This document shows, piece after piece, positions 10,796 through 62,733 of a stretch of 63,486 nucleotides of DNA. The notes beneath the pieces were generated by a model. The model saw only the letters and a program-made list of their open reading frames with translations, searched no databases and was not told the origin of the DNA. This DNA comes from Clostridia bacterium (GTDB lineage Bacteria; Bacillota; Clostridia; UBA1381; UBA9506): contig JAFQWH010000051.1 in assembly GCA_017407515.1 (NCBI GenBank), positions 1 to 63,486 on the forward strand. Direction: 5' to 3'. How positions within the stretch are numbered: position 1 is the first letter of the stretch; each line of letters begins with the position of its first letter. The position numbers were made by a program, and so were the translations under genes.

Positions 10796-11918
10796 TTATT
10801 TTAAGTTTAAAGTACCCAAACTTGCCGCTTTTAAGTAAGCATTGATAAACGGATCCAAATCCCCGTCCATAACGGCACCGGTGTTACCGGTTTCGTGAGA
10901 GGTACGGTGGTCTTTTACCATGCTGTACGGGTGGAAAACATAAGACCGAATCTGGCTACCCCAGGCAATATCTTTCATATCGCCCTTTAAGTCTTCAATT
11001 TTTTCTTTATGTTCCCGTTCTGCCATTTCCACAAGCTTTGCTTTCAGCATTTTCATGGCCGTATCCTTGTTCTGGTGCTGAGAACGCTCGTTCTGACAGG
11101 CAACCACAACGCCGGTGGGGATATGGGTAATACGGATTGCAGAGTCTGTCTTATTAACGTGCTGTCCGCCGGCACCGCCGGAACGGAAGGTATCAATTTT
11201 TAAATCATCAGGGTTAATGTTAACCTCAATATCGTCGCTGATTTCCGGCATAACATCAACCGAAACAAAGGACGTATGCCGTCTGCCGGAGGCATCAAAG
11301 GGCGAAATACGCACTAGGCGATGTACCCCTTTTTCCGCCTTGGCATAGCCATAGGCATTATCCCCGCTAATCTGAATGGTAACGCTTTTAACGCCGGCTT
11401 CGTCACCTGCTAAATAGTCTAAGGTTTCAACAGAGAAACCGCGGCGTTCTGCCCAATGCTGATACATTCTCAGAAGCATTTCCGCCCAGTCCTGTGCCTC
11501 AGTACCGCCGGCACCGGGGTGCAGGGATAAAATAGCGTTATTAGCATCATACTTGCCGGAAAGGAGCGTATCCAGTCGCAAGGTCTCTAAATCTTCAGAC
11601 AACTTTTTATAGCTTTCTTCCACTTCCGGAAGCAGGCTGTCATCATTTTCTTCAATCGCAAGCTCGCAAAGGGTCAGGGCATCTTCCCAGGCACCGTATA
11701 AGTTATTATACCGGCCCACCTTTGCCTTTAATTGCTTTAATTTCTGGAGTACTTTTTGGGAAGCATCCATATCATTCCAGAACTCCGCATCGGAGGACTG
11801 TTCTTCTAAGGCTTTTATTTCCTGTTCTGTCTTGGGGACTTCAAAGTGAATCCCTCAGTTCTAAAATAACATCCTTCATGGCATGAAGGTCAAGACGATA
11901 CTGATCGTACTCTATCAT
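10796..11918 (-). CDS. prfB: peptide chain release factor 2, requires programmed +1 frameshift
   Basis: Frame 0 runs from ATG 11918 for 25 codons (MIEYDQYRLDLHAMKDVILELRDSL) and ends CTT TGA. The +1 frame continues EVPKTEQEIKALEE...SPF...GGQHVNK to the stop at 10796. The ORF track shows only 10796-11770. Confidence 0.93.
11841..11856 (-). other. prfB +1 frameshift site (SD-like GAGGGA, then CTT TGA A)
   Basis: Minus strand reads GAGGGATTCACTTTGA. CTT is at 11846-11844 and the in-frame TGA at 11843-11841. The SD-like element lies a few nt upstream, as in the canonical RF2 autoregulatory site. Confidence 0.9.
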
Positions 11919-11955
11919 ATTTTCAGTCCTTTCATAAAAGAAAATTTATTTTAGC

Positions 11956-14685
11956 TTACTCCTCTGCACCGCAGCATTTTTTGTATTTTTTGCCGGAGCC
12001 GCAGGGGCAAAGGTCATTTCTGCCTACTTTGTCTGTTTTCTTTACCGGTTTCTTTTCCTCGTCACCGGCAAGGCCGGCACGAACAGGCTCCGCCTGAGCT
12101 TTTCTTTCCGGTGGTGCTTCCAGCCGCATGTTAAACAGATGCCGAATGGTGTCTTCCCGAATGGCGGCAATCATTTCTTCAAACATATTGTAGCCTTCAA
12201 ACTTAAATTCCACAACGGGGTCACGCTGTGCGTAAGCACGAAGGTTAATACCGTTTCTTAACTGATCCATATCGTCAATATGGTCCATCCACTTGCTGTC
12301 AACTGCACGGAGCAGAACCACTCGTTCAAGCTCACGCATGGGTTCTTCCGTAAACTCAGCCTCTTTCTTTTCATATAACGCAAGGCCGGCAGCATACAGC
12401 TGTTCTTTTAATTCGTCTTTTGTGAGATACTCTAAGTCTTCCCGGCTAAAGGTAACGGTGCCTGCCGGCAGATAAATCGTCTCTAAATATTCCAAAAGCC
12501 CGGTCAGGTTCCACTCATCAGCACCCTCGCTGCTGCCGGTATACCGGTCAACAACCTCGTCAATTAAGTCTTTTAACATCTTCAAGATACTGTCTTTTAC
12601 GCTTTGACCGTTTAAAACAGTCTGACGCTGACCGTAAATAATCTCACGCTGCTGGTTCATAACATCGTCATACTGCAGAACGTGCTTACGAATCTGGAAG
12701 TTCTTGCCCTCAACTCGCTTCTGTGCACTTTCAATGGCATTAGACAGAATTTTGTGTTCAATGGGCTGGTCTTCTTCAAGACCCAACGCCCCTACAACGG
12801 CTGCCATACGATCAGAGCCAAAGAGACGCATTAAATCATCTTCTAAGGAAATATAGAACCGGGAAGCACCGGGGTCACCCTGACGGCCGGCACGACCGCG
12901 AAGCTGGTTATCAATACGGCGGGATTCATGCCGCTCTGTACCGATGATGAAAAGACCCCCTGCCTGGCGGACTTTTTCTGCCTCGGGTGCAATTTCCTCT
13001 TTAAATTTCTCAATCAGTTCAGCATACAGCTTTCTGGCTTCCTTAATTTCAACATCATCGGTTTCGGAAAAGCCCATAGCCTCGGAAATCAACTCATCAG
13101 AAAGGCCCTGCTTCTTCATTTCGTGCTTTGCCAAAAATTCAGCATTACCGCCCAGCATAATATCGGTACCACGGCCTGCCATGTTGGTGGCAATGGTAAC
13201 AGCACCGAGTTTACCTGCCTGAGCAATAATCTCTGCTTCCTTTTCGTGGTACTTAGCGTTTAACACCTCGTGACGAATGCCACGACGCTTAAGCATAGAA
13301 GAAAGCTGTTCCGATTTTTCAATGGTAACCGTACCCACAAGGACCGGCTGTCCCTTTTCATGGCACGCAACCACCTGCTCTACCACGGCGTTTAACTTAC
13401 CACGTTCGGTTTTATAAACAGAATCGGACAAGTCCTTTCGAATCATTTCCCGGTTAGTGGGAATTTCAATAACGTCCAGCTTATAAATATCCTGGAACTC
13501 TTCTTCCTCGGTAAGAGCCGTACCGGTCATACCGGAAAGCTTGTTGTACAAACGGAAGTAGTTCTGGAAGGTAATGGTTGCCAGGGTTTTGCTTTCCCGT
13601 TCAACCTTAACACCCTCTTTTGCCTCGATGGCCTGATGCAGGCCGTCAGAGTAGCGTCTGCCCATCATCAGTCGGCCGGTAAATTCGTCAACAATAATGA
13701 TTTCGCCGTCTTTGTTAACATAGTCAATATCCCGGTGCATAATGCCGTGAGCACGAATTGCCTGGTTAATATGGTGCTGCAGAGTCATGTTCTCCGGGTC
13801 AGAAAAATTCTCAAGATTAAAGGCCTTTTCCGCTTTGGCAATACCCTGCTTTGTCAGGGTTGCGGTATGTGCCTTTTCGTCTACGATATAATCTGCCTGA
13901 ATCTCGTCATCTAATTCTTTATCGTTCGCCTCAGTCACCTTATGGCAGGTTAAGTTTCTTGCAAAGCGGTCTGCCACATGGTAAAGCTCTGTGGATTTAT
14001 CCCCCACGCCGGAGATAATTAACGGGGTTCTTGCTTCGTCAATTAAAATAGAGTCAACCTCGTCCACAATGGCATAATGCTGGCCACGCTGCACCATCTG
14101 TTCTTTATAAATTACCATATTGTCACGGAGATAGTCAAAGCCGAATTCGTTATTGGTACCGTAGGTGATGTCGGCTTCGTAGTTTGCTTTTCTCTCCCCG
14201 GGAGCAATGTCATGAATAATCAGACCAACCGTAAGACCTAAAAACTTAAAGACCTTACCCATCCACTCACTGTCACGCTTAGCCAGGTAATCATTCACCG
14301 TAACGATATGAACACCTTTTCCCTCTAAGGCGTTTAAATAAGCCGGCAGGGTTGAAACCAGGGTTTTACCTTCACCGGTTTTCATCTCGGAAATTCTACC
14401 TTGATGGAGGACAATACCGCCCATAATCTGCACGTAAAAATGCTTCATGCCAAGAACACGCCACGCCGCTTCACGAACGGTGGCAAAGGCTTCCGGCAAC
14501 AAATCGTCTAAGGTTTCGCCCTGAGACAGACGGGCTTTAAACTCGGCGGTTTTTGCCTTTAAAGCATCATCAGACAGCTTTGAAAATTCTTCTTCCAAAG
14601 CTATAACACGGTCAGCAATGGGGCGAACACGTTTAAGCTCACGGTCGCTGTATTTTCCCAGAATTTTTTCTAAAAACTTTTTCAT
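11956..14685 (-). CDS. secA: preprotein translocase ATPase SecA
   Basis: Full-length SecA with DEAD-like motor motifs and a C-terminal zinc-binding tail, [14 protein letters not shown]. The likely start is [10 protein letters not shown] at 14685. An alternative ATG is at 14697. The ORF-track start at 14793 is too long. Confidence 0.95.
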
Positions 14686-51354: not shown

Positions 51355-51431
51355 GCGCCCGTAGCTCAGCTGGATAGAGTGCCTGGCTACGAACCAGTAG
51401 GTCGGGAGTTCGAATCTCTCCGGGCGCACCA
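51355..51431 (+). tRNA. tRNA-Arg (anticodon ACG), CCA encoded
   Basis: Acceptor GCGCCCG/CGGGCGC, anticodon loop CTACGAA, T-loop TTCGAAT. Close in pattern to canonical bacterial tRNA-Arg(ACG). Confidence 0.92.
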
Positions 51432-53569: not shown

Positions 53570-54550
53570 TTATAAGTCCCCCGCTGTGTGGAACCAACCG
53601 CTGGAAACCTTCGGCATTTCTTTCCGTCCAGGTACCGGTTCCGGTTCCGGTACGTCCGGCGGTGTCTCCGGCGGTATAAAGGAGCCGGCTCCGGACACCG
53701 TTGCCAGGGTTTGAATAATTTCTTCCGAGGAAGGTCTGTCTTCCGGATTTACGGAAAGCATCTTCATAATCAATTCTCCAAACGCCGGAGGAATAAAGCG
53801 ATTATTAACCGTCAACTCTCCCCCGTTTAATACTGCCTCGAAAGGATAATCATATTCAGCTTGGTCAAAATATGGCAGAAACCCTGCAAAAAGCTCATGG
53901 AAAACCAGCCCCAGACTGAAAATGTCTGTTTTTTCAGTCAGCGTAACCTGTTCTCCTGCCATTGCCAGAAAGGTTTCCGGAGCGAGATATGTCAAGTCGC
54001 CACCCAACTCCACATCTTCCCGTGGTTCATTCTTAAAAAAGCCGGCATCAAAGTCAATCAGCTTCCCCGTATACTTGCCGGTTCTGGTTCTTTTAATCAT
54101 AATATTAGAGGGTTTAACATCAAAATGAATAATGTTTGCCCTATGTAACCAGAAAAAAGCAAAGGCAATAGATTTAATAAGCAAATATTTGTCCGGTACA
54201 GAAAGCGTAGACACTAAATTTGCGGGAATGGTATCCCCCGCCACCTTTTCCGTTACCACATAATACCGGCTGTCACACCGGAAAAATTCAACAATCCGAA
54301 CTAAGCTGCCATATCCGGCTTTGTTTAACGTATTATAAAAGGTTCTGTATCGGTTTTCAAAGGACAGACAATAATCCCGGCGGCTTTTCAAAAGTTCGGG
54401 AGACATAACCCCCTCGTCCATGGGATACACCGGCGTAATTAACTCTTTAATAAAGTATTCCCTGCCGTTTTTTGTGGCAAACCCCCATTTAGAAAAGCCA
54501 CTGTTTGCGTTGTTCAGTTCTGTCGTTAGTGTATAGCCGTTAATAACCAT
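53570..54550 (-). CDS. Ser/Thr protein kinase with Pro-rich C-terminal extension ending ...SSGWFHTAGDL
   Basis: Hanks-type core: lysine in YFIKEL, catalytic loop HFDVKPSN, DFD (DFG equivalent), and LAPE. No TM segment and no PASTA domain. Confidence 0.88.
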   Translation of the reverse strand: MVINGYTLTTELNNANSGFSKWGFATKNGREYFIKELITPVYPMDEGVMSPELLKSRRDYCLSFENRYRTFYNTLNKAGYGSLVRIVEFFRCDSRYYVVTEKVAGDTIPANLVSTLSVPDKYLLIKSIAFAFFWLHRANIIHFDVKPSNIMIKRTRTGKYTGKLIDFDAGFFKNEPREDVELGGDLTYLAPETFLAMAGEQVTLTEKTDIFSLGLVFHELFAGFLPYFDQAEYDYPFEAVLNGGELTVNNRFIPPAFGELIMKMLSVNPEDRPSSEEIIQTLATVSGAGSFIPPETPPDVPEPEPVPGRKEMPKVSSGWFHTAGDL

Positions 54551-54578
54551 GTATCATTCCCCAAAATAGTAAAATAGC

Positions 54579-55595
54579 TTATAAATCCCCTGCAGACTTG
54601 AAGAATCCGCCACTTTCTTCTTTCGCTCCTGCTGAAGTATGCCCGTCCGTAGGACGCGGTCTTCTCATTGTGGAGATAACACGAGGCTCACTTGCCGCAG
54701 GTGCAGGAGGCACAGAAGGCTCATAAGTCGGCGGTACATATGCCGCAGGGTCATATGCCGGCGGTTCATACGCCGCAGGGTCATACGTCGGAGTTGTTGC
54801 CGGCGGTTCGTACGCTGCAGGGTCATACATCGGAGTTGTTGCCGGCGGTTCGTATGATACAGGTTCATATGTCGTTGTCTCATAAGATACTGCTTCATCA
54901 ACCGTTTTTTTGCCTTTTGTAACCAGCACAATAATCAACGAAACAACCAGAAGCACAAAAATGCCTGCATAAATGCACATTTTCACAATGAAATTCAGAG
55001 TCCACTCTCGGCTCAGAACGAATTTTTCTCCCCAGTCCTCTTCTTCCATGGTTAAAACCATAGAAAACCCTTTCCAGGATATGTTGTAAAATAGATCTTC
55101 ATTATCCGCATTGGCAATCTTGCCATCCTTAATTTCTATATCGACAGTTTCTTTCTCATCATCGGATTCGTCATATCCTATCATTTCATCCTTTGTAATC
55201 TCTATACGAGTTAAAAATATTTCGTGATCTACTTTGTTTTCCTCACCGTCATAAATTTCATATACTTCTTCTACTTTCCAGCTGCCCTTAGGGTCTCTTG
55301 TAGCAAAAAACGCCAGCACACCGGTGGCAATAATAGCCACGCCTAACACAAGGGCAATAATCAGCTTAACCACGCCTCTTTTAGAACGGGGAGCCGGAAT
55401 TTCATCATATGTTTCTGATGCCGGAATTGTTTCAGGAATGTACTCGGCCATTTCAGGAGCAGGATCTGACACAACCGCTTCCGTTCCTAAGACAGCCTCC
55501 TCAAAAGGTACAGAGCCGCTTTCCTGCTTTGCACCGCAGTTTGTACAAAAAATTGCATCATCTGCTAAGTTTGTTCCACAATTAGTACAGTACAT
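54579..55595 (-). CDS. zinc-ribbon two-TM membrane protein with Pro/Tyr/Thr-rich cytoplasmic repeats and tail ...ESGGFFKSAGDL
   Basis: N-terminal CTNC-x10-CTNC ribbon, TM1 (LIIALVLGVAIIATGVLAFFA), an acidic loop domain of about 115 aa, and TM2 (MCIYAGIFVLLVVSLIIVLV). Then come YEPPATTP(M/T)YDPAA repeats and a tail matching the kinase C-terminus. Confidence 0.85.
   Translation of the reverse strand: MYCTNCGTNLADDAIFCTNCGAKQESGSVPFEEAVLGTEAVVSDPAPEMAEYIPETIPASETYDEIPAPRSKRGVVKLIIALVLGVAIIATGVLAFFATRDPKGSWKVEEVYEIYDGEENKVDHEIFLTRIEITKDEMIGYDESDDEKETVDIEIKDGKIANADNEDLFYNISWKGFSMVLTMEEEDWGEKFVLSREWTLNFIVKMCIYAGIFVLLVVSLIIVLVTKGKKTVDEAVSYETTTYEPVSYEPPATTPMYDPAAYEPPATTPTYDPAAYEPPAYDPAAYVPPTYEPSVPPAPAASEPRVISTMRRPRPTDGHTSAGAKEESGGFFKSAGDL
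54771..54854 (-). repeat. in-frame tandem repeat, 2 x 42 nt (40/42 identical), inside the zinc-ribbon protein
   Basis: Units at 54771-54812 and 54813-54854 encode YEPPATTPTYDPAA and YEPPATTPMYDPAA. Degenerate partial copies flank them across 54714-54884. Confidence 0.9.
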
Positions 55596-55629
55596 AATAA
55601 CACTCCTTTTTTATAACCTAATCGTCCGC

Positions 55630-56568
55630 TTATGACTGTTGCATAAACTTTGTATATTCTTTTTGATAAGATTGCCACTTTACAGGAATCGGCAACGGCG
55701 ATTTAATATAATTCTGGTCAACAAAAGCCGTTCTTTTGCTGAAGCTTTTCTGCATAGAATAAAAATCTTCATAACCAAAAGCCGCCACACAAAGAGTATA
55801 ATCGTCCCCCGTAAATTCACGGATATTAGCGTGCATCAATGTTTGCCAGTCCAAAATATTTTTGGTTGAAAGCATGGTTCTCGTTAACAAAAATTCAAAA
55901 TCCATAGGAGATTTCAAATATCCGAAACAGCCGTCTGTTGCCGTTAAAAAAATCCCCGGTTTACTGAGCGAAATCGTTTTTTTGTGCAAAACAAAGTCCT
56001 TACTGCTGCAGATAACATTGGTCAGAACGCCGTCATCAAAAATATTGCTGAGAGCATCTTCACCGTTAATATCATCTTCTGAAAGCTGATGTAAACCGTC
56101 TTCATCTAAAAGATAACAACGGGAATCCCCTGCCCAGTAGCAGGTTGCCTCACCGTCTAAAACACAAACCATTGCCGCTGTTGTCGGGAAGGATTTCGTC
56201 AGGCTACCCATAAGCCTTCCGCCCTTATCACCGTAAGCATCACAGACTTTTAAGGCTCGCTTAATATAGCCTTTTAATGCCTCGTCCTGTCGCGGAGATT
56301 CCTCGAACCAGCTTTTAACGCCACCGCAAACGGCTCTGGAGGCAACGTAAGCTCCTGTTTTTTCGGAATAATTCCCGTACCTTTTAGAGCCAATGCCGCC
56401 GCAACCGTCAAAAACAGCAACTATGCTGTTGTTCTCCACTGTGGCATAATAATAAGAGTCTTCACCTTTACCAGGAACCATTTCTCCCGCAACTGCAAAG
56501 ATTGTATTCGGCTTTGTCAATGTATATTTTTTTGTTGATGATTTCTTCTTTTTATTCAACATACTCAT
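55630..56568 (-). CDS. PP2C-family Ser/Thr phosphatase
   Basis: Metal-binding motifs GEDSY, FDGCGG, ATDG and GDDYT are all present. The ATGA start/stop overlap with the vWA gene suggests translational coupling. Confidence 0.85.
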   Translation of the reverse strand: MSMLNKKKKSSTKKYTLTKPNTIFAVAGEMVPGKGEDSYYYATVENNSIVAVFDGCGGIGSKRYGNYSEKTGAYVASRAVCGGVKSWFEESPRQDEALKGYIKRALKVCDAYGDKGGRLMGSLTKSFPTTAAMVCVLDGEATCYWAGDSRCYLLDEDGLHQLSEDDINGEDALSNIFDDGVLTNVICSSKDFVLHKKTISLSKPGIFLTATDGCFGYLKSPMDFEFLLTRTMLSTKNILDWQTLMHANIREFTGDDYTLCVAAFGYEDFYSMQKSFSKRTAFVDQNYIKSPLPIPVKWQSYQKEYTKFMQQS

Positions 56569-57251
56569 ATTGTGTTTGTAATCGTATCAATAATCTGGTT
56601 ATAGTCCAATTCACTCAGACCGTTACCTGCCTGAGAGGGGAAATGTAAAACATTGTCCCAGTTCTGGGAAATTAAGTTCCAGTCCGGTGCATCGGGAGCA
56701 TACAGCACAAGACGCTTTGCGTTTCTGTCAATATAGCCGGTCTGCTGAACACCGCCCCACCATGCTGTCAGCTCGTTTAAGTCGCTTGCCATGCCGCTGG
56801 GATAGTACGGGCTGGTTCTGCCGAAGCCAAGCTTATGTGTTGCAGCATCTGTCCAAACAACAATAACCTGGCGTTTTTTCATACCCTCAGTTTCCCAGGG
56901 AGATTTGATAGCGTAAGCCAATGCTTCCAGACCGTCTTCCGGATCGTCACCGCCGCCGTCTGCTACTAAGCTGCGAACGCATCTTTCAAAATCGGCTGAC
57001 TGTTCGGGCAGCTTGAAGAAGTCTGTAACCAGCATAGCATTTTCAGCATCTGCCAGATAATCACGGAACGCAACGACGCGAACGCGAAGCTGACTGATGT
57101 GTTTATTTTTGCTTTCCATAACGCTGGTAACATCATGATAAAAGTTTAATGCGTTGTTTTTTACAATATCAATAATGTTATCCATACTGCCGGTACAGTC
57201 AATGCAGAAAACCATATCTACATTGTAAGTAATTTTATAATTGCTTGCCAT
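56565..57251 (-). CDS. cytoplasmic vWA-domain protein with MIDAS motif
   Basis: DCTGS (a DxSxS-type MIDAS), GGGDDPEDGLEAL and VVWTDA strands of a Rossmann-like vWA fold. No signal peptide or TM segment. Confidence 0.85.
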   Translation of the reverse strand: MASNYKITYNVDMVFCIDCTGSMDNIIDIVKNNALNFYHDVTSVMESKNKHISQLRVRVVAFRDYLADAENAMLVTDFFKLPEQSADFERCVRSLVADGGGDDPEDGLEALAYAIKSPWETEGMKKRQVIVVWTDAATHKLGFGRTSPYYPSGMASDLNELTAWWGGVQQTGYIDRNAKRLVLYAPDAPDWNLISQNWDNVLHFPSQAGNGLSELDYNQIIDTITNTI

Positions 57252-57274
57252 TTTTTATTCCCTCCGTATTGTTA

Positions 57275-57784
57275 TTAGTTATTGTCAGTAACCTGAACAG
57301 GATCAGGTGTTGCCTTGTAGGCTTCATAGCCTTGCGTTACTTTATCTGTAATGCTTTGGGGTGTGGTTGTTTCTGTTTTGGGGGTTGTTGTGTTGTCCGC
57401 TTCTGCATTACCGGAAGCACCTTGTGCAACCTTAGGGTGATGCAATTTAACCGCATTCATGGTCGAAACGCCAAAAACCAGCGTAAAAATAAGAATTAAC
57501 CCGCAAAGCAAAACTGTAATAAGCTGAAACAGCCTGTTTTGTCTGTTTGTTTTTAAAATTTCGTCAGTCTTTTTAAGTAATTTCTGCATATCGTATTCAC
57601 TGATCCCTTCCTGATTGGTCGTTTTGTCAGGTTCGATGGTAATTTCCATGTTTTTTGCTTCAAAACTTAAAATATCAGCAAAGCCACCGCAACCGGACGC
57701 TGCCGGCATTGGACTGCCACAGTATCTGCAGGCACCGGTGTTTTCCGGGTTATCTTTTCCGCATTGATTACAAAACAAATCCAT
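57275..57784 (-). CDS. zinc-ribbon single-TM membrane protein
   Basis: CNQC-x10-CRYC ribbon, TM helix LFQLITVLLCGLILIFTLVFGV, and a Thr-rich outer tail. Confidence 0.8.
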   Translation of the reverse strand: MDLFCNQCGKDNPENTGACRYCGSPMPAASGCGGFADILSFEAKNMEITIEPDKTTNQEGISEYDMQKLLKKTDEILKTNRQNRLFQLITVLLCGLILIFTLVFGVSTMNAVKLHHPKVAQGASGNAEADNTTTPKTETTTPQSITDKVTQGYEAYKATPDPVQVTDNN

Positions 57785-57795
57785 CCACCTCCGAT

Positions 57796-58152
57796 TTAAT
57801 AAGAATTAGCCACATATGCTAAAATACATATAGCAAAAATAACAAGTGCTATTACTGCAACCGCTGTCCAGCCTGAAGAAGAAGGCTTTTCATAAACCGG
57901 CGTTGTTTCTCTCTCTGTATCCCTAAAGACAGGTCGGGAATACGTTGATGCAGAAGACGAACCCCGATAGCCCATAGGAGCTGTTCTTCTTTCCATTTCC
58001 GGCGACCAGGCTCTTTCCACCGTAGCAGCTGCGACTCTGCCGGCTCCACAAAGCATACAAGTGCCTGAAGCTATCTCGTTTTCCGTTTCGCAGTTAGGAC
58101 AAACCCAACAATCTCTCGCCCGCCTATATTGTAAAATTACTTTTGTTTCCAT
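57796..58152 (-). CDS. RanBP2-type zinc-finger, tail-anchored membrane protein
   Basis: WVCPNCETENEIASGTCMLCG fits W-x-C-x2-C-x3-N-x6-C-x2-C exactly. The C-terminal TM is WTAVAVIALVIFAICILAYV. It is the first gene after the consensus promoter. Confidence 0.8.
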   Translation of the reverse strand: METKVILQYRRARDCWVCPNCETENEIASGTCMLCGAGRVAAATVERAWSPEMERRTAPMGYRGSSSASTYSRPVFRDTERETTPVYEKPSSSGWTAVAVIALVIFAICILAYVANSY

Positions 58153-58198
58153 GCAGGACCTTCCTCCGGGGATTTTCTAAAATAATAAATATGCATAC

Positions 58199-58227
58199 AT
58201 TATATAATTTCTGTCGACATTTGTCAA
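58199..58227 (-). promoter_or_regulatory. perfect-consensus sigma-A promoter, TTGACA-17-TATAAT, for the six-gene operon
   Basis: On the minus strand, TTGACA is at 58227-58222, the spacer is 17 nt, and TATAAT is at 58204-58199. It lies about 45 nt upstream of ATG 58152. Confidence 0.75.
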
Positions 58228-58304: not shown

Positions 58305-59081
58305 TTAGTCTTCGTCACCGTCTAAAACGCTTTCAATTCTGTCCTTAGAATAAAGGTCACCAACGCCGCCAACGTACCATTTACCCTTGATTTTTGCTAC
58401 AACATATTCGTCAGTATCTGAGTCATCATCTTCGGAACCCTTGATGGTTACTTTTGCTTTAAGAACGCGAATATCCTGCAGGTCTTTCGCCTCATAGTCA
58501 TAATGTTCTTCTAAGTACTCACCAAGCTCTTTTACTTCTTTTTTCTTATACTTAGTAACCTTTTTGATCTCAACCTTGGTTTTTAATCTGTTACCAAATT
58601 CATCTTCCAGATCGTCAAGTTCTTCTTCAGCATTTTCTTTAAACTCTTCAATATAATCTTCTTTGCTGTCAATATCGTTATATTCGCTATCGATAGCTTT
58701 TTCTAACTCAATCGGGTCAATTGTAAGATTATAAATTGCTTTACCATCGCCCTTGGCCATAGCCTTATAAAGCTTCTTAAGAGCTTTTTCAGAACCGTGG
58801 GTAAATACGCCACAAGCAGCTAAGATAATCAGAACTAAAATAACCGCAACAATAGGAATTGCAATCTTAATAATTTTCTGAAGCTTATCATTCCCTTTTA
58901 CAACATCCACCGCGGAATCAAAAGCACCAGTTACTGCAGCTGTTACGCCGGCAACACTAGCCCCAGCCGGTGCACTTGCTTCTTCTACAACAGGTGCTGC
59001 TACGGGCTCTAAATTAGCACCGCAACCCTCACAGAATTTTGCTTCATCAGGATTAGCCTGACCGCATCTTTCACAAAACAT
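58305..59081 (-). CDS. zinc-ribbon single-TM protein with acidic extracytoplasmic domain
   Basis: CERC-x10-CEGC ribbon, Ala-rich linker, TM IAIPIVAVILVLIILAACGVF, and a charged outer domain of about 165 aa. It has its own promoter and terminator. Confidence 0.85.
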   Translation of the reverse strand: MFCERCGQANPDEAKFCEGCGANLEPVAAPVVEEASAPAGASVAGVTAAVTGAFDSAVDVVKGNDKLQKIIKIAIPIVAVILVLIILAACGVFTHGSEKALKKLYKAMAKGDGKAIYNLTIDPIELEKAIDSEYNDIDSKEDYIEEFKENAEEELDDLEDEFGNRLKTKVEIKKVTKYKKKEVKELGEYLEEHYDYEAKDLQDIRVLKAKVTIKGSEDDDSDTDEYVVAKIKGKWYVGGVGDLYSKDRIESVLDGDED

Positions 59082-59280: not shown

Positions 59281-62200
59281 TTACTGATTCACAAGTTCAA
59301 AGGTAATAGTAGCTTTTCCGTTTGCATCTAAAGGAATCATCAATCTCTGAATAACATGAGTTCCAAAAGTACCATAGCCCCTTGTTTCGTCAAAGGTTGC
59401 TGCTGTAGAGCTGTGAATATTCATGCTGCCATAGCTGCCTTCTACCGTTGACTTATAGTTTAATGTCTTTTTATCGGCGCTTTGGGTAATTACAGAGTGG
59501 AACACACCAACACTGTCATTGGGCGAGTCATAGTATCTGCCACTTCTTTTTGTGAATATCGGCAGTACAATATGTGCTTCCTTGTAGTCTGCCGCTGCAT
59601 CTGTCGGTGTATAGGTAACATCTACCGTAAAGCCGGTTTGTGTGTAGGTTGTTTTATAGGTCAGACTGCCATAAGTACCCTCGCCGCTTGTCAAATGATG
59701 ACACAGAGGAGACACAATGGTATGACCCTGGCTGTTTTCTTCTGTAATTGTTCCGTTTGCACCGCGGCTTTGATGCACGGTGCCATCCTTTAAGGTTACA
59801 TAAACGCCGCTGTAATAAACCGCTTTATCATTTTTTCCGGTAACACCTGTTGTACCATCGTTTAAATGCTGAGACAGCACCACGGGACCCGTACCCTCAG
59901 ACCAGACTGCAAAGGGTAAGCCGCCTCTGTATGCCAATAACGACTCATTGACTGTTTTCGTCGTAGAATAAGGATTTGCGTAGAAGTGCATTGCATAAAC
60001 CCCGTTTTTCTTCCACGCCAAAAGGTCCTCAGATTTCCATACCTTATCCGTTTCATAAACCGGCAAGGTAGCTGTTTCGTCCGTCCAGGGTTCCTGTGTA
60101 AAAATTTCATAGGAGCGAACGCTTGCATAGTTGGTTCGCTTATCGCTAGCAGCTGCCAACGGATTAGCTACATTAAAGATGTTTTGCTCAAGCATCGCTT
60201 CGCCAAGTTCCGGCAAGCGGTAAATTAAATCCGGGTCCAGACTTGTCGTATATCTGTTCTGGCGTAGCTGCAACAGTGTGTTGGCAAGAGGGAAACCAAC
60301 CGAGGCATAGCTAAAGTTCGGGTAAACACCACCGCCGGCACCATAACTCTGATTAACACCCTTTGCCATAATCGCCGTTGCCGAATAAGTTGAACCACTT
60401 GCTCCCCCTACCGGCATCCAGTTTAGAGCCTCCCAGGTAACATAGCGGTCCACTATGTCGTGCAATGTTGCAAAAACTGCTTCATCTCTGTTCGGCAGGC
60501 CTTTGTAAATATAATAGCAAGGATACAGATTATGCATAACCTGATTTCCATATCCGGCACTGGGCGCCATTCTCTCTAAGAAAGCACCGGTGCTGTTCTG
60601 GCCTAAGCTGTTGTAATCCACCGGGGGCTCGCCAATGCCTTCAACAGCACGTTCAAAATACCGCAGGAACCGTTCTTCGCCGGTTGCCATATAGATTTCC
60701 ATATGTGCCATTAGAATTTCTGACCACTGGTTAGTATCGTTTGCCATGTAGTTTGCCAGTTTATCGCCCATTAAGATGACCGCATTCCGCATAATTTTGG
60801 AAACTTCAGGAGATACCTTATCTTTCAGCAGATTATATGCCTGGCAAAGACCCGGGATAGTAAAGAATGTTCTTTCGCAAGGCCAGTAATCTCCGTAAGA
60901 TGTATTGGTAATGTTGCCCTGTTCATCTCTTGTAATGGTGTACGTAATACCGTAGCCACGAATCATGTGCTCCGGTGACATTTCTACAATATGGCTAAGA
61001 GTAGCCAGGGCTGCCCGGTTAACCATTGCCGTATCACCATATAAAGGATTCAATTTCGTGGGAAGACCGGCATACGCTGCCAGGTTCCCCGCCGAATAAA
61101 TATCACGCCAGCTACCGTTATGATAGGTAAAATCTTCAAAATTCTTACGGTAGTCAAGAGAACCGTTTTTAAATTCTGTAACCTGCAGGCTGCCAAGGAA
61201 GATATCATTTGGGTTCAGGTTCTGCGTTCTGCACGCATAGGCCACATCAGAAAGACCGCTGTCGTCGCCGGCAATCAAGGCTTCAACGCCGCCCATGCCA
61301 AGCTCTCTGACCTGTTCGGGCATTTCCGAAACAAAGTCAACATCAACGGTCAAATCGCCGTTATTCACAATATCAAGACTGGCATCTCTGGCTCTTGCCT
61401 GCACAACGCCGCCTAGGGTTCTGCCGTCAGAAGAGGTAGCGATGCCGCCCTTTAACTTCATCGCAGCCTCTTTTGAATTACACAAAAGACCGGGCAAGCC
61501 CTCAATAATACCTACATATAAGCCGTTAAAACTAACATTGCCGGAAACGGGCCAATAGTGATAAATATTAACGTTTTCAGGCGTACCAAAGTATGTCATC
61601 CAGTCATCAAAGGACAGTGTCCAGACTGTGTCTGCATCTTCTTCTTCAATCACGTCGCACATCAGTCTTGAATGAAGTCTTGGTTCTAAATCGGCAACGT
61701 TGCCGTTTGCTTTAAAAATTTCGGGAATTTCTGTTCCGTCTGCTTTAGTAACTGTTGGTAAAACGCCAGCATGATTGTTGGGTATCATAAACACAGCATC
61801 GGCACCAACGCAGCTTTCCGGCACATAGATATACCATTTTTTTACGTCGCCGTTTTTATCCAGCATGGTTTTATGGTTCAGTCCTATAATCATATCTCCG
61901 CGAATACCGTAATACGGTGTTTGAGGAATACCGATGGTGACTTCATCGCAGGTATGCAGACCGCCGCAGTAGGAAATTGTCCAGATACCCGGCTCGCCGG
62001 TATATTCGGGAACATCGAAAATAACACCGTCAGCGGACCCTTCCGCAGAAAAGTCATAATAACAAACAACCTTACCGTTAGGGTCAATAACACGAGCTGT
62101 TCTGAACTGTTCAAATTTTACAGGCTCACTGCTGCTGTTAGCCCTGTGGGACAAACCTACATAAATCTTATCCGGTGCGGTTTCAAAATAAGCCAGCATG

Positions 62201-62733
62201 GAAGCACCGTTTACTACATATTTCTGCCAGGTGGATCTGAACGCCTCATGAACCGGGAACTGAGCTGCTACCTCTTCATCGGACAGAACCCCCTCTGTTA
62301 CAACAGAAACCGTGTTATGCCTGTCATAGTCATTATAGATACTGCCATATGTCAAGTTAATTTCATCGGAGCGAATCAATGGCTGAACGCTGTCTGCAGA
62401 ATTTAAAACATAGGCACGAACAGACGTAATGTCTTCCGTAACATCAGTAACCGTATAGGTTTTTTCGAACCTTTCTCCCGCATCCAGAGTAACGGTTTCA
62501 GGAGTTGCTTCTTTCAGCGTGTTCCCGGCATATTTTGCCAAAACAACAGAAACCTTCTGCTCTGTTCCTTCATTGTTTTTTAGAATCAGGTCATATGTTG
62601 CATCATGTCCTGTTGCAAGGAGATTTCCCTGAAAATTACCCATAACCTCAACACCGGATGCCGGTGCTGCCATAACGGGTAATGCAGAAAGAATGAGAAA
62701 AATTCCTAAAGCAATTGCTAAATACCGTTTCAT
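59281..62733 (-). CDS. 1150-aa secreted protein of unknown function
   Basis: Signal peptide (LILSALPVMA-AP) and an N-terminal Ig-like module. The remaining region of more than 1000 aa has no motif I can assign. No SLH domain, LPXTG motif or TM anchor. Confidence 0.8.
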   Translation of the reverse strand: MKRYLAIALGIFLILSALPVMAAPASGVEVMGNFQGNLLATGHDATYDLILKNNEGTEQKVSVVLAKYAGNTLKEATPETVTLDAGERFEKTYTVTDVTEDITSVRAYVLNSADSVQPLIRSDEINLTYGSIYNDYDRHNTVSVVTEGVLSDEEVAAQFPVHEAFRSTWQKYVVNGASMLAYFETAPDKIYVGLSHRANSSSEPVKFEQFRTARVIDPNGKVVCYYDFSAEGSADGVIFDVPEYTGEPGIWTISYCGGLHTCDEVTIGIPQTPYYGIRGDMIIGLNHKTMLDKNGDVKKWYIYVPESCVGADAVFMIPNNHAGVLPTVTKADGTEIPEIFKANGNVADLEPRLHSRLMCDVIEEEDADTVWTLSFDDWMTYFGTPENVNIYHYWPVSGNVSFNGLYVGIIEGLPGLLCNSKEAAMKLKGGIATSSDGRTLGGVVQARARDASLDIVNNGDLTVDVDFVSEMPEQVRELGMGGVEALIAGDDSGLSDVAYACRTQNLNPNDIFLGSLQVTEFKNGSLDYRKNFEDFTYHNGSWRDIYSAGNLAAYAGLPTKLNPLYGDTAMVNRAALATLSHIVEMSPEHMIRGYGITYTITRDEQGNITNTSYGDYWPCERTFFTIPGLCQAYNLLKDKVSPEVSKIMRNAVILMGDKLANYMANDTNQWSEILMAHMEIYMATGEERFLRYFERAVEGIGEPPVDYNSLGQNSTGAFLERMAPSAGYGNQVMHNLYPCYYIYKGLPNRDEAVFATLHDIVDRYVTWEALNWMPVGGASGSTYSATAIMAKGVNQSYGAGGGVYPNFSYASVGFPLANTLLQLRQNRYTTSLDPDLIYRLPELGEAMLEQNIFNVANPLAAASDKRTNYASVRSYEIFTQEPWTDETATLPVYETDKVWKSEDLLAWKKNGVYAMHFYANPYSTTKTVNESLLAYRGGLPFAVWSEGTGPVVLSQHLNDGTTGVTGKNDKAVYYSGVYVTLKDGTVHQSRGANGTITEENSQGHTIVSPLCHHLTSGEGTYGSLTYKTTYTQTGFTVDVTYTPTDAAADYKEAHIVLPIFTKRSGRYYDSPNDSVGVFHSVITQSADKKTLNYKSTVEGSYGSMNIHSSTAATFDETRGYGTFGTHVIQRLMIPLDANGKATITFELVNQ

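Follow-up and report, generated by a model that had tools for sequence, protein, structure and literature searches.

The subject of this work was a six-gene operon on the minus strand of a contig from a Clostridia bacterium (JAFQWH010000051.1, assembly GCA_017407515.1), which was analyzed over its whole length of 63,486 nucleotides, hereafter the window. The operon (58152-53570) encoded a stand-alone von Willebrand factor A (vWA) protein, a PP2C phosphatase, a Hanks-type Ser/Thr kinase and three predicted membrane proteins with zinc ribbons (ZnR). The original prediction, made from the DNA letters of the window, had described six tightly packed genes, and all six open reading frames (ORFs), g1 to g6, were present in the order and at the coordinates it had given. 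The gaps between them were, from g1 to g6, 11, 23, -4, 34 and 28 nt, the negative value being an ATGA overlap of the vWA and PP2C genes. A Shine-Dalgarno sequence preceded most of the genes, that of the kinase gene being weak.

As had been predicted, a sigma-70-type promoter, TTGACA-17-TATAAT, was located at 58199-58227 (minus strand), and it agreed with the consensus at 12 of 12 positions. It was the sole exact match in the window, and none appeared in dinucleotide-preserving shuffles of the window (0/100). The anticipated terminator was found past the kinase stop codon as an intrinsic-terminator-like hairpin (53563-53525, minus strand) with a 17-bp stem, flanking A and U runs, a folding free energy (dG) of -21.4 kcal/mol and a z-score of -3.96. 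Promoter-like matches also occurred within the operon, e.g., an 11/12 match at 54360-54332. Because the genes shared one perfect promoter and one terminator, were separated by gaps of 11-34 nt and included an ATGA overlap, it was concluded that they formed a real operon, beyond chance.

The operon products were analyzed by Pfam profile search and by hydropathy prediction of transmembrane (TM) segments. The vWA protein (g3, 56565-57251, minus strand) was a soluble single domain of 228 aa with matches above the cut-off to VWA_4 (E-value 1.8e-9) and VWA_2. The PP2C/PPM phosphatase (g4, 55630-56568, minus strand), a soluble protein of 312 aa whose start overlapped the vWA stop, matched PP2C_2 above the cut-off (1.3e-8). 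The kinase (g6, 53570-54550, minus strand), also soluble and 326 aa long, matched Pkinase at 9e-27, and its domain was followed by a disordered linker and a C-terminal tail. No TM segments were predicted in g3, g4 or g6, and neither a zinc ribbon nor an OB fold was fused to the kinase according to Pfam and the AlphaFold2 (AF2) model.

The MIDAS (metal ion-dependent adhesion site) of the vWA was represented by D18-x-T20-x-S22 (nt 57186-57200), GGGDDPEDG at residues 99-107 (nt 56931-56957) and WTDA. The corresponding motifs IDxTGSM, GGGDxPEDGLEAL and W[TS]DA were conserved over 84 related loci, where they were invariant with a near-invariant PEDGLEAL loop. In the PP2C, the motifs GED, DGCGG, GDSR, DG and DD were at least 90% conserved among 74 homologues. 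The kinase residues K35 (beta3 Lys), H142/D144/K146/N149, D166-F-D168 and P191-E192 (APE) were invariant or nearly so in 70-120 homologues; the catalytic loop read HFD, so the enzyme was a non-RD kinase. Judged from the sequences, the catalytic and MIDAS residues of the operon products are intact and conserved in homologues, in agreement with the original prediction. Its domain calls were likewise borne out by the profiles for the vWA, the PP2C, the kinase and the ribbon of g5, and more weakly for the ribbons of g2 and g1: the E-values against Zn_Ribbon_1 were 4.2e-8 for g5 (above the cut-off), 4.8e-5 for g2 (just under it) and 6.4e-3 for g1 (weak).

The first ZnR membrane protein, g1 (57796-58152, minus strand, 118 aa), combined an N-terminal RanBP2-type ribbon (residues 16-35, nt 58048-58107) with a C-terminal tail-anchor TM segment (97-115). 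The RanBP2 pattern W-x-C-x2-C-x3-N-x6-C-x2-C, recognized by eye, was matched exactly by its sequence, and the Pfam zf-RanBP match was sub-threshold (E 0.059). Homologues of g1 occupied the equivalent operon position in the related loci L005, L006, L007, L009, L010 and L018. The second, g2 (57275-57784, minus strand, 169 aa), had an N-terminal ribbon, a CGGFADILSF motif, one TM segment (residues 88-106) and a short T/P-rich ectodomain, and many loci had a member of its family encoded immediately upstream of the vWA gene. The pattern C-G-G-F-[AYWF]-D-[IL]-[LV]-[ST]-[FY] was seen right after the ribbon in g2 and in its homologues of L001, L006-L010, L018, L052, L062 and L071.

The third, g5 (54579-55595, minus strand, 338 aa), consisted of an N-terminal ribbon, two TM segments (78-96 and 207-225) enclosing an ectodomain of ~110 aa, and a cytoplasmic Pro/Tyr-rich repeat tail ending in GGFFKSAGDL. 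Since two TM segments were predicted, both the ribbon and the C-terminal tail of g5 would face the cytoplasm. A g5-type protein with an identical tail was encoded between PP2C and kinase in L005. The repeat region of g5, located between the second TM segment and the AGDL end, contained tandem DNA repeats (54717-54869, minus strand) with periods of 15, 30 and 42 nt that encoded the Pro/Tyr-rich peptides YEPPATTP[MT]YDPAA, and it was the source of a weak NCBIfam match to the GltJ Pro-rich region.

In the window, the operon was flanked by genes for citrate synthase, a tRNA, an FtsW/RodA-like protein and a secreted protein. The tRNA-Arg(ACG) gene (51355-51431, plus strand) lay between the FtsW/RodA-like gene and the citrate synthase gene. 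The housekeeping flank with citrate synthase had been foreseen correctly. The orphan secreted protein named as the other immediate neighbor was not in that place, which was held by a seventh gene, g0 (58305-59081, minus strand), encoding a ZnR protein of 258 aa with a single TM segment (70-88) and a Zn_Ribbon_1 E-value of 7.7e-7. The secreted protein (59281-62733, minus strand; 1150 aa, with a signal peptide and no assigned domain) was encoded beyond it, upstream of g0. The g0 gene was predicted to be separately transcribed, with its own promoter (59189-59161) and its own terminator (58287-58262) just ahead of the operon promoter. A full-length homologue of g0 (E 5e-18) was encoded within the operon of L015, and g0 is probably an associated member of the module. 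Citrate synthase adjoined the module in just one other metagenome-assembled genome (MAG), and the flanks were non-syntenic among related loci; the synteny with citrate synthase was therefore dropped as incidental.

The vWA fold and the shared C-terminal tail

The AF2 model of g3 was of high confidence, with a pLDDT (predicted local distance difference test score) of 89 and a predicted template modeling score of 0.88. The top 50 fold matches of this model in the PDB were all integrin beta subunits (E ~2e-9, TM-score 0.60-0.66). When a profile of the vWA family was compared with the PDB, the first matches were again integrins, namely beta8 (1.8e-4), beta6 and beta1. By fold and by profile, the nearest solved relatives of the vWA are thus integrin beta I domains. 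The vWA loop D-x-P-E-x-G-L-[ED]-A aligned with a loop of the integrin beta I domain which, in beta3 numbering, we take to hold the glutamate of the MIDAS and of the synergistic metal-binding site (SyMBS).

The vWA was also the most conserved of the three core proteins. Mean identity to the proteins of the window was 62% for the vWA, 37% for the PP2C and 39% for the kinase, and the vWA was the highest of the three in 73 of 73 loci; such strong conservation would fit a hub with many partners. The family was large, with 1683 homologues in a database clustered at 90% and 2337 clusters at 50% identity, 328 of them below 1e-30. Annotation was sought for ten distant cluster representatives, and none was found. 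Two natural kinase-vWA fusions without the tail (P0150 and P0175) were recorded. Another family member (P0161, 405 aa) was fused to SMEK_N and matched the PADLOC model Aga_REase-PNTD; some branches of the vWA family may therefore sit in conflict systems.

The kinase ended in ...SGWFHTAGDL and g5 in ...GGFFKSAGDL. The tail motif of the kinase was WFHTAGDL-COOH (53573-53596, minus strand), and that of g5 was FFKSAGDL-COOH (54582-54605, minus strand). Of 697 stop-to-stop ORFs in the window, g5 and g6 alone ended in this motif. Among the 120 closest kinase homologues, 106 ended in GDL and 97 in AGDL. In a logo of 112 tails, W stood at position -8 in 103 and F at position -7 in 109, and Ser or Thr was frequent at positions -5 and -6. 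The linker ahead of the tail varied in both length and sequence, the homologues being 258-515 aa long. Further, the tail was enriched among accessory proteins encoded within such operons: the strict pattern occurred in 12 of 240 in-operon proteins as against 0 of 766 outside (p 2.7e-8), and the loose pattern in 25 of 240 as against 3 of 766. Among the carriers were ZnR proteins with two TM segments of the g5 kind, further membrane proteins and, in Lachnospiraceae, small soluble ZnR proteins encoded beside the vWA. No description of the AGDL tail turned up in the literature searched.

The AF2 model of the kinase had a pLDDT of 91, its nearest PDB folds being CAMK-like kinases, and consisted of the kinase domain and a disordered tail, the last ~35 residues having pLDDT values of 51-61. 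Since the tail was modeled as unstructured beside a confident kinase domain, it would not be docked in cis. The possibility that the tail folds back onto its own kinase, in the style of the hydrophobic motif of AGC kinases, was set aside on account of these values. The tail motif was conserved to the degree of the catalytic residues and stood at the end of a variable, disordered linker, as is characteristic of short linear motifs for docking, in this case in trans.

Departures from this tail were also found. The only two vWAs reading PEDA for PEDG (residue 107) were those of L050 and L082, both accompanied by a kinase with the tail GNL. The vWAs of L018 (kinase tail GSL; vWA residue 108) and L037 (GNL; residue 111) deviated in the same PEDGLEAL loop. 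Basic kinase tails were found elsewhere, of the type LNGLSRFMKK in Christensenellales "Limiplasma" (L043-L083) and of the type RLVGKLVRKR in soil metagenomes (L105-L167), and these sequences may form amphipathic membrane-binding helices.

Distribution of the module

A genome scan was performed with seven closer vWA sequences as the query and one genome per species. The vWA module was found in at least 275 species, including members of Oscillospiraceae, Lachnospiraceae (e.g., Blautia caecimuris DSM 29492), Faecalibacterium langellae, Ruminococcus and Christensenellales "Limiplasma". The closest relative among the matches listed was that of L005, an Oscillospiraceae MAG, with 79% identity and an equal six-gene layout. 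A full vWA-PP2C-kinase triad was present in 72 of 82 non-duplicate related Clostridial loci, mostly in the order vWA-PP2C-kinase (V-P-K) and in Lachnospiraceae in the order PP2C-kinase-vWA (P-K-V). The gene set was repeated in dozens of genomes with non-syntenic flanks.

The triad was further found in 39 metagenome or plasmid loci outside Clostridia, in Chloroflexi, cyanobacteria and soil metagenomes, so that the co-occurrence expected from the window extended well beyond this genome. One plasmid each of Herpetosiphon and Calothrix and numerous contigs of soil metagenomes carried triads in V-P-K order. A RanBP2-type ZnR gene accompanied the triad in 28 of the 39 non-Clostridial loci, typically directly after the kinase gene; its product was a soluble protein of ~100 aa in the soil lineages and an 82-aa tail-anchored, g1-like protein in Herpetosiphon. 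Because a RanBP2-type ZnR accompanied the triad outside Clostridia too, it was concluded that the conserved unit is a quartet of vWA, PP2C, kinase and zinc ribbon. The ORF of ~100-111 aa after the kinase gene (L114, L121, L122, L133, L139, L141 and others) ended in P-[LIV]-P-G-G-C-L past a Pro-rich linker, and this C-terminus of the soil RanBP2-type ZnR proteins may be another docking motif. On the Herpetosiphon plasmid pHAU01 (L085), a gene annotated as "Integrin alpha beta-propellor repeat protein" (Haur_5142, 11117-12706) lay on the strand opposite to the triad and ~1.2 kb downstream of it, which is curious beside an integrin-beta-like vWA but may be a coincidence.

ZnR proteins accompanied the triad almost without exception. 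Within the operons, proteins with an N-terminal ZnR were strongly enriched among the accessory products, with 93 of 240 in-operon proteins as against 20 of 766 outside (Fisher p 2.6e-45). Matches of accessory proteins to PF00641 (RanBP2-type) had E-values as low as 1.8e-9. The accessory ZnR membrane proteins were highly variable and expanded into paralogues. In a domain census of 119 accessory proteins, 103 families were matched and the 25 matched most often were inspected. Most of the proteins had no recognizable domain beyond the ribbon, and a few had ectodomains of the TPR, SH3_3, ricin-lectin, LRR or fn3 kind. Effectors of the nuclease, toxin, protease or NTPase type were not present among these 25 families.

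In IMG/VR, no close relatives of the vWA were found, but only giant-virus vWAs of 26-33% identity. The phage collection yielded one contig, the unannotated 12-kb "Bacteriophage sp." MT836186.1 from human feces, with a vWA of 61% identity at 2097-2777; this contig may be a mis-binned bacterial fragment. A prophage or phage origin of the module was disfavored on these grounds.

Proposed mechanism and its alternatives

We proposed, with a probability of about 0.5, that the module is a membrane-associated Ser/Thr phospho-signaling unit, in which a vWA hub would tether the kinase to the ZnR membrane proteins and the PP2C would reset the system. The hub would be the soluble, integrin-beta-I-like vWA, the MIDAS of which would capture the WFxxAGDL-COOH tail of the kinase and also that of tail-bearing membrane proteins such as g5. 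Binding would be through the last Asp of the tail and its free carboxylate, in the way of fibrinogen AGDV-COOH on integrin beta3. The cytoplasmic zinc ribbons of the membrane proteins would be engaged by a second vWA surface or by a vWA oligomer, for which the best precedent is the archaeal pair in which the RanBP2 zinc finger of ArnA binds ArnB, and the non-RD kinase would thereby be brought to variable membrane sensors. There it would phosphorylate members of the complex, a step that would be reversed by the PP2C, itself coupled in translation. The g5 protein, having both a ribbon and a tail, would bind bivalently or would act as a competitor of the kinase for the MIDAS.

The pairing of the tail with the MIDAS was proposed because AGDL-COOH shares the chemistry and the position of AGDV-COOH, and because the vWA is the only soluble invariant non-enzyme of the operon. 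The beta I domain accounts for nearly all of the contact of integrin alphaIIb-beta3 with AGDV-COOH, the disordered C-terminal end of the gamma chain of fibrinogen (PMC4813479). The Asp coordinates the MIDAS metal with its side chain, water links the free alpha-carboxylate to the metal of the site adjacent to MIDAS (ADMIDAS), and amidation of the terminus makes binding ~5.6-fold weaker (PMC4813479). On this analogy, the specific tail-MIDAS contact is a tentative proposal, which was judged somewhat less probable than its absence. The wider idea that a cytoplasmic beta-I-like MIDAS domain reads WFxxAGDL-COOH as a tail-tag recruitment code, assembling a Hanks kinase with changing ZnR receptors in gut Clostridia, is offered just as cautiously. 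The kinase-vWA fusions P0150 and P0175, in which a covalent link would stand in place of the tail, would support a pairing of vWA and tail. The view of the original prediction, that the vWA binds the cytoplasmic faces of membrane proteins under kinase and phosphatase control, was found plausible, with the shared AGDL tail as a candidate interface. The contacts of the vWA with the tail (by its MIDAS) and with the ZnR, as well as substrates and biological output, are inferred. This output is probably envelope or surface sensing rather than defense, because the ectodomains are variable and effector domains are absent from the 25 accessory families inspected.

Several observations weighed against this mechanism. 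The clades with basic kinase tails kept an identical vWA MIDAS, so the MIDAS has, or also has, a ligand other than an acidic tail. A loss of the MIDAS in clades without the acidic tail was looked for across the 84 loci and was not seen, which counted against an exclusive pairing of tail and MIDAS. In the sequence alignment, vWA position 24, the ADMIDAS equivalent (beta3 D126/D127), varied among loci. No ZnR neighbors were seen in the Christensenellales loci. If the vWA neither oligomerizes nor has a second site, the kinase and the membrane proteins that share its tail would be competitors for a single MIDAS. Additionally, the zinc-finger-binding surface of ArnB, formed by a beta-sandwich and a helical domain, is absent from this single-domain vWA. 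Finally, the covariation of tail and loop, which speaks for a pairing of tail and vWA, concerned few loci: a kinase tail of the form G[NS]h (h, hydrophobic) instead of GDh was found in four loci, all with a substitution in the PEDGLEAL loop, as against 9 of 70 other loci, and with a hypergeometric p of ~6e-4, uncorrected for phylogeny and based on four loci, it was taken as a hint only.

Part of this evidence would suit a phospho-signaling unit that is real but in which the AGDL tail is not the vWA ligand. The tail would then be a docking or pseudo-substrate element for the PP2C or for a kinase in trans, a protease degron or a localization signal, and the MIDAS would have a different ligand, for example the acidic motif after the ribbon (CGGFADIL in g2) or a phosphorylated residue. 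The unchanged MIDAS beside kinases without an acidic tail would be expected in that case. The g2 family does have its own conserved acidic motif beside the ZnR, and this internal CGGF... motif could be an alternative MIDAS ligand. The frequent Ser or Thr at positions -5 and -6 would fit as well, and the basic C-termini of other clades suggest a general localization element at the end of the kinase. Against this stand the chemistry, since Gly-Asp-hydrophobic-COOH is a documented kind of beta I ligand and the vWA is beta-I-like, the fusions in which the tail is exchanged for a covalent link, the covariation hinted at for the PEDG loop and the Asp of the tail, and the absence of a predicted docking of the tail onto the domain of its own kinase. 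We consider this explanation unlikely, though still one to be reckoned with. An accidental arrangement of neighbors, or of several unrelated transcription units, would find some room in the weak Shine-Dalgarno sequence of the kinase gene and in the internal promoter-like matches (54360-54332, 11/12), but it is hardly credible in view of the single perfect promoter and terminator, the short gaps with the ATGA overlap, the recurrence of the gene set in dozens of genomes with non-syntenic flanks and the highly significant in-operon enrichment of ribbons and tails.

The original prediction had also named phage conflict as a possible output. In such a TerY-P-type defense, infection would be detected by the vWA together with the kinase and the phosphatase, which would then set off an arrest of growth or some other response, and the variable ZnR membrane proteins would be diversifying sensors or effectors. 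The triad architecture equals that of TerY-P, a TerY-P-like system of which protected against T7-like phages, the accessory ZnR membrane proteins vary strongly and have expanded into paralogues, and the plasmid triads of Herpetosiphon and Calothrix stand near a resolvase, IS1 and a methyltransferase. The kinase matched the PADLOC models of the PD-T4-6 and mad6 kinases at 1.7e-28 to 2.9e-28, but these were generic Hanks-domain matches. One vWA member, that fused to SMEK_N, matched the Aga model, whereas no PADLOC model was matched by the vWA or PP2C of the window, of 27 diverse relatives or of the plasmid triads, the presence of TerY-P models in the library being unconfirmed. Effector domains were missing from the 25 most often matched families of the census, the flanks in the window were of the housekeeping kind and IMG/VR held no close relatives. 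The vWA, the slowest-evolving part of the module, was under strong purifying selection, the opposite of the fast-evolving vWAs of conflict systems. A role in phage conflict was consequently regarded as improbable. A sporulation-specific role, also raised in the original prediction, is unlikely for the reason that the triad is carried by Faecalibacterium (L039), which is not known to sporulate.

The proposed phospho-signaling unit with its vWA hub offers a testable hypothesis, namely a conserved peptide on a kinase and on its membrane partners, with a beta-I-like MIDAS as the reader. With its occurrence in at least 275 species, including the cultured gut genera Blautia, Faecalibacterium and Ruminococcus, the module is likely a major, unstudied route of envelope signaling in the gut microbiota. 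If the tail-MIDAS contact were true, it would be a prokaryotic intracellular counterpart of integrin-ligand recognition, with a bearing on the origin of the integrin beta I domain. It would also reveal a previously unrecognized tail-tag recruitment code in a large share of gut Clostridia.

Comparison with known systems

The kind of triad described here is already known, having been recognized by comparative genomics since 2012, and one version is anti-phage; what the vWA does and how the triad is wired were unexplained in the literature found. The Clostridial version with a shared tail and an integrin-beta-like vWA is new. According to PMC11090510 and PMC4978471, the TerY-P triad was defined by Anantharaman, Iyer and Aravind (2012) as a vWA, a PP2C and a Ser/Thr kinase, with the ZnR normally fused to the kinase. 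A TerY-P-like system was anti-phage in Gao et al. (2020), as summarized in PMC7699616, and the kinase of that version had a C-terminal OB fold. The present module resembles TerY-P in having a stand-alone MIDAS vWA, a PP2C and a Ser/Thr kinase in one operon, a zinc ribbon as a recurrent fourth element and a proposed metal- and phosphorylation-dependent switch logic. The stand-alone vWA was adjacent to PP2C and kinase genes in the window, and this arrangement was kept in 72 Clostridial and 39 other loci. Unlike in TerY-P, the ribbon is not on the kinase C-terminus but is encoded in trans as part of three (or four) membrane proteins, the C-terminus of the kinase is a disordered linker with WFxxAGDL-COOH, and the module is conserved across Clostridia with the vWA as its slowest-evolving part. 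Judged by its gene architecture, the module is thus TerY-P-like with the ZnR supplied in trans.

No linkage to ter genes, McrBC/CoCoNuT, WXG/FtsK or DNA-processing and restriction genes was seen in the flanks of the window or among the 25 most often matched of the 103 accessory families. A tblastn search of the vWA against 72,556 plasmids (E<=1e-3) returned only the Herpetosiphon and Calothrix triads and no ter-plasmid gene, the comparison being at the level of BLAST. Of the two names used in the original prediction, "TerY-P triad" stands as an architectural comparison. The label "vWA ternary system" was rejected, as those systems are defined by vWA-MoxR-VMAP, and no MoxR, other AAA+ or VMAP was found in the operon (Pfam) or among the 25 most often matched accessory families.

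Actinobacterial cassettes located by GAP1-N2 GTPase systems contain a ZnR- or TM-fused kinase, a PP2C and a stand-alone vWA, for which a function in assembly through the binding of peptides was put forward (Kaur et al. 2020, PMC7159879). The vWA/PP2C/kinase trio is the same, with the zinc ribbon or TM on the kinase there. The module analyzed here differs from these cassettes in having no GTPase, MoxR or effector-associated domains and in placing ZnR and TM segments on separate proteins. In Deinococcus radiodurans, a vWA, a Ser/Thr kinase and a PP2C are encoded in one operon, DRA0331-DRA0334, and the vWA was suggested to be a scaffold (bioRxiv 10.64898/2026.01.23.701218). Unlike the present operon, it relies on a kinase with a TM segment and on FHA domains, which are present in KI-FHA-PP2C and in a stand-alone FHA protein, without ZnR membrane proteins or a described C-terminal tail. 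Neither Kaur et al. (2020) nor the Deinococcus preprint described membrane ZnR arrays or a shared C-terminal tail.

A further relative in logic is the ArnA-ArnB-ArnC/ArnD module for motility repression in Sulfolobus acidocaldarius (PMC6509490, PMC12852372). In it, ArnA makes direct contact with the vWA protein ArnB through its RanBP2 zinc finger, and the change of the ArnA-ArnB complex between loose and tight, brought about by the Hanks kinase ArnC, adjusts archaellum expression to nutrient supply (PMC6509490, PMC12852372). Both modules comprise a protein with a RanBP2-type zinc finger, a vWA protein whose MIDAS is intact, one or more Hanks kinases and a phosphatase, g1 being the RanBP2-type partner in the present case. 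Direct zinc finger-vWA binding, a phosphorylation-switched complex and the regulation of a surface structure by nutrients are features of Arn. The vWA-family profile did not match ArnB or ArnE at E<0.1. ArnA is soluble with an FHA domain, whereas the ZnR proteins here are membrane-anchored and FHA was not found by Pfam; ArnB carries its zinc-finger site and phosphosites on a beta-sandwich and helical domains, whereas the present vWA is a single domain of 228 aa; and the Sulfolobus phosphatase is a PP2A/PTP, whereas a PP2C is encoded here.

The comparison with integrin beta3 and fibrinogen concerns recognition rather than gene content. Unlike an integrin beta subunit, the present vWA is cytoplasmic and prokaryotic and is without an alpha-subunit partner, a hybrid domain or a TM segment, the residue at its ADMIDAS-equivalent position varies among loci, and the tail is only a putative ligand. 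Both have a MIDAS of the DxSxS type together with the loop D-x-P-E-x-G-L-[ED]-A, and the Ala-Gly-Asp-hydrophobic-COOH terminus recognized by the integrin is nearly identical to the AGDL-COOH shared by the kinase and g5.

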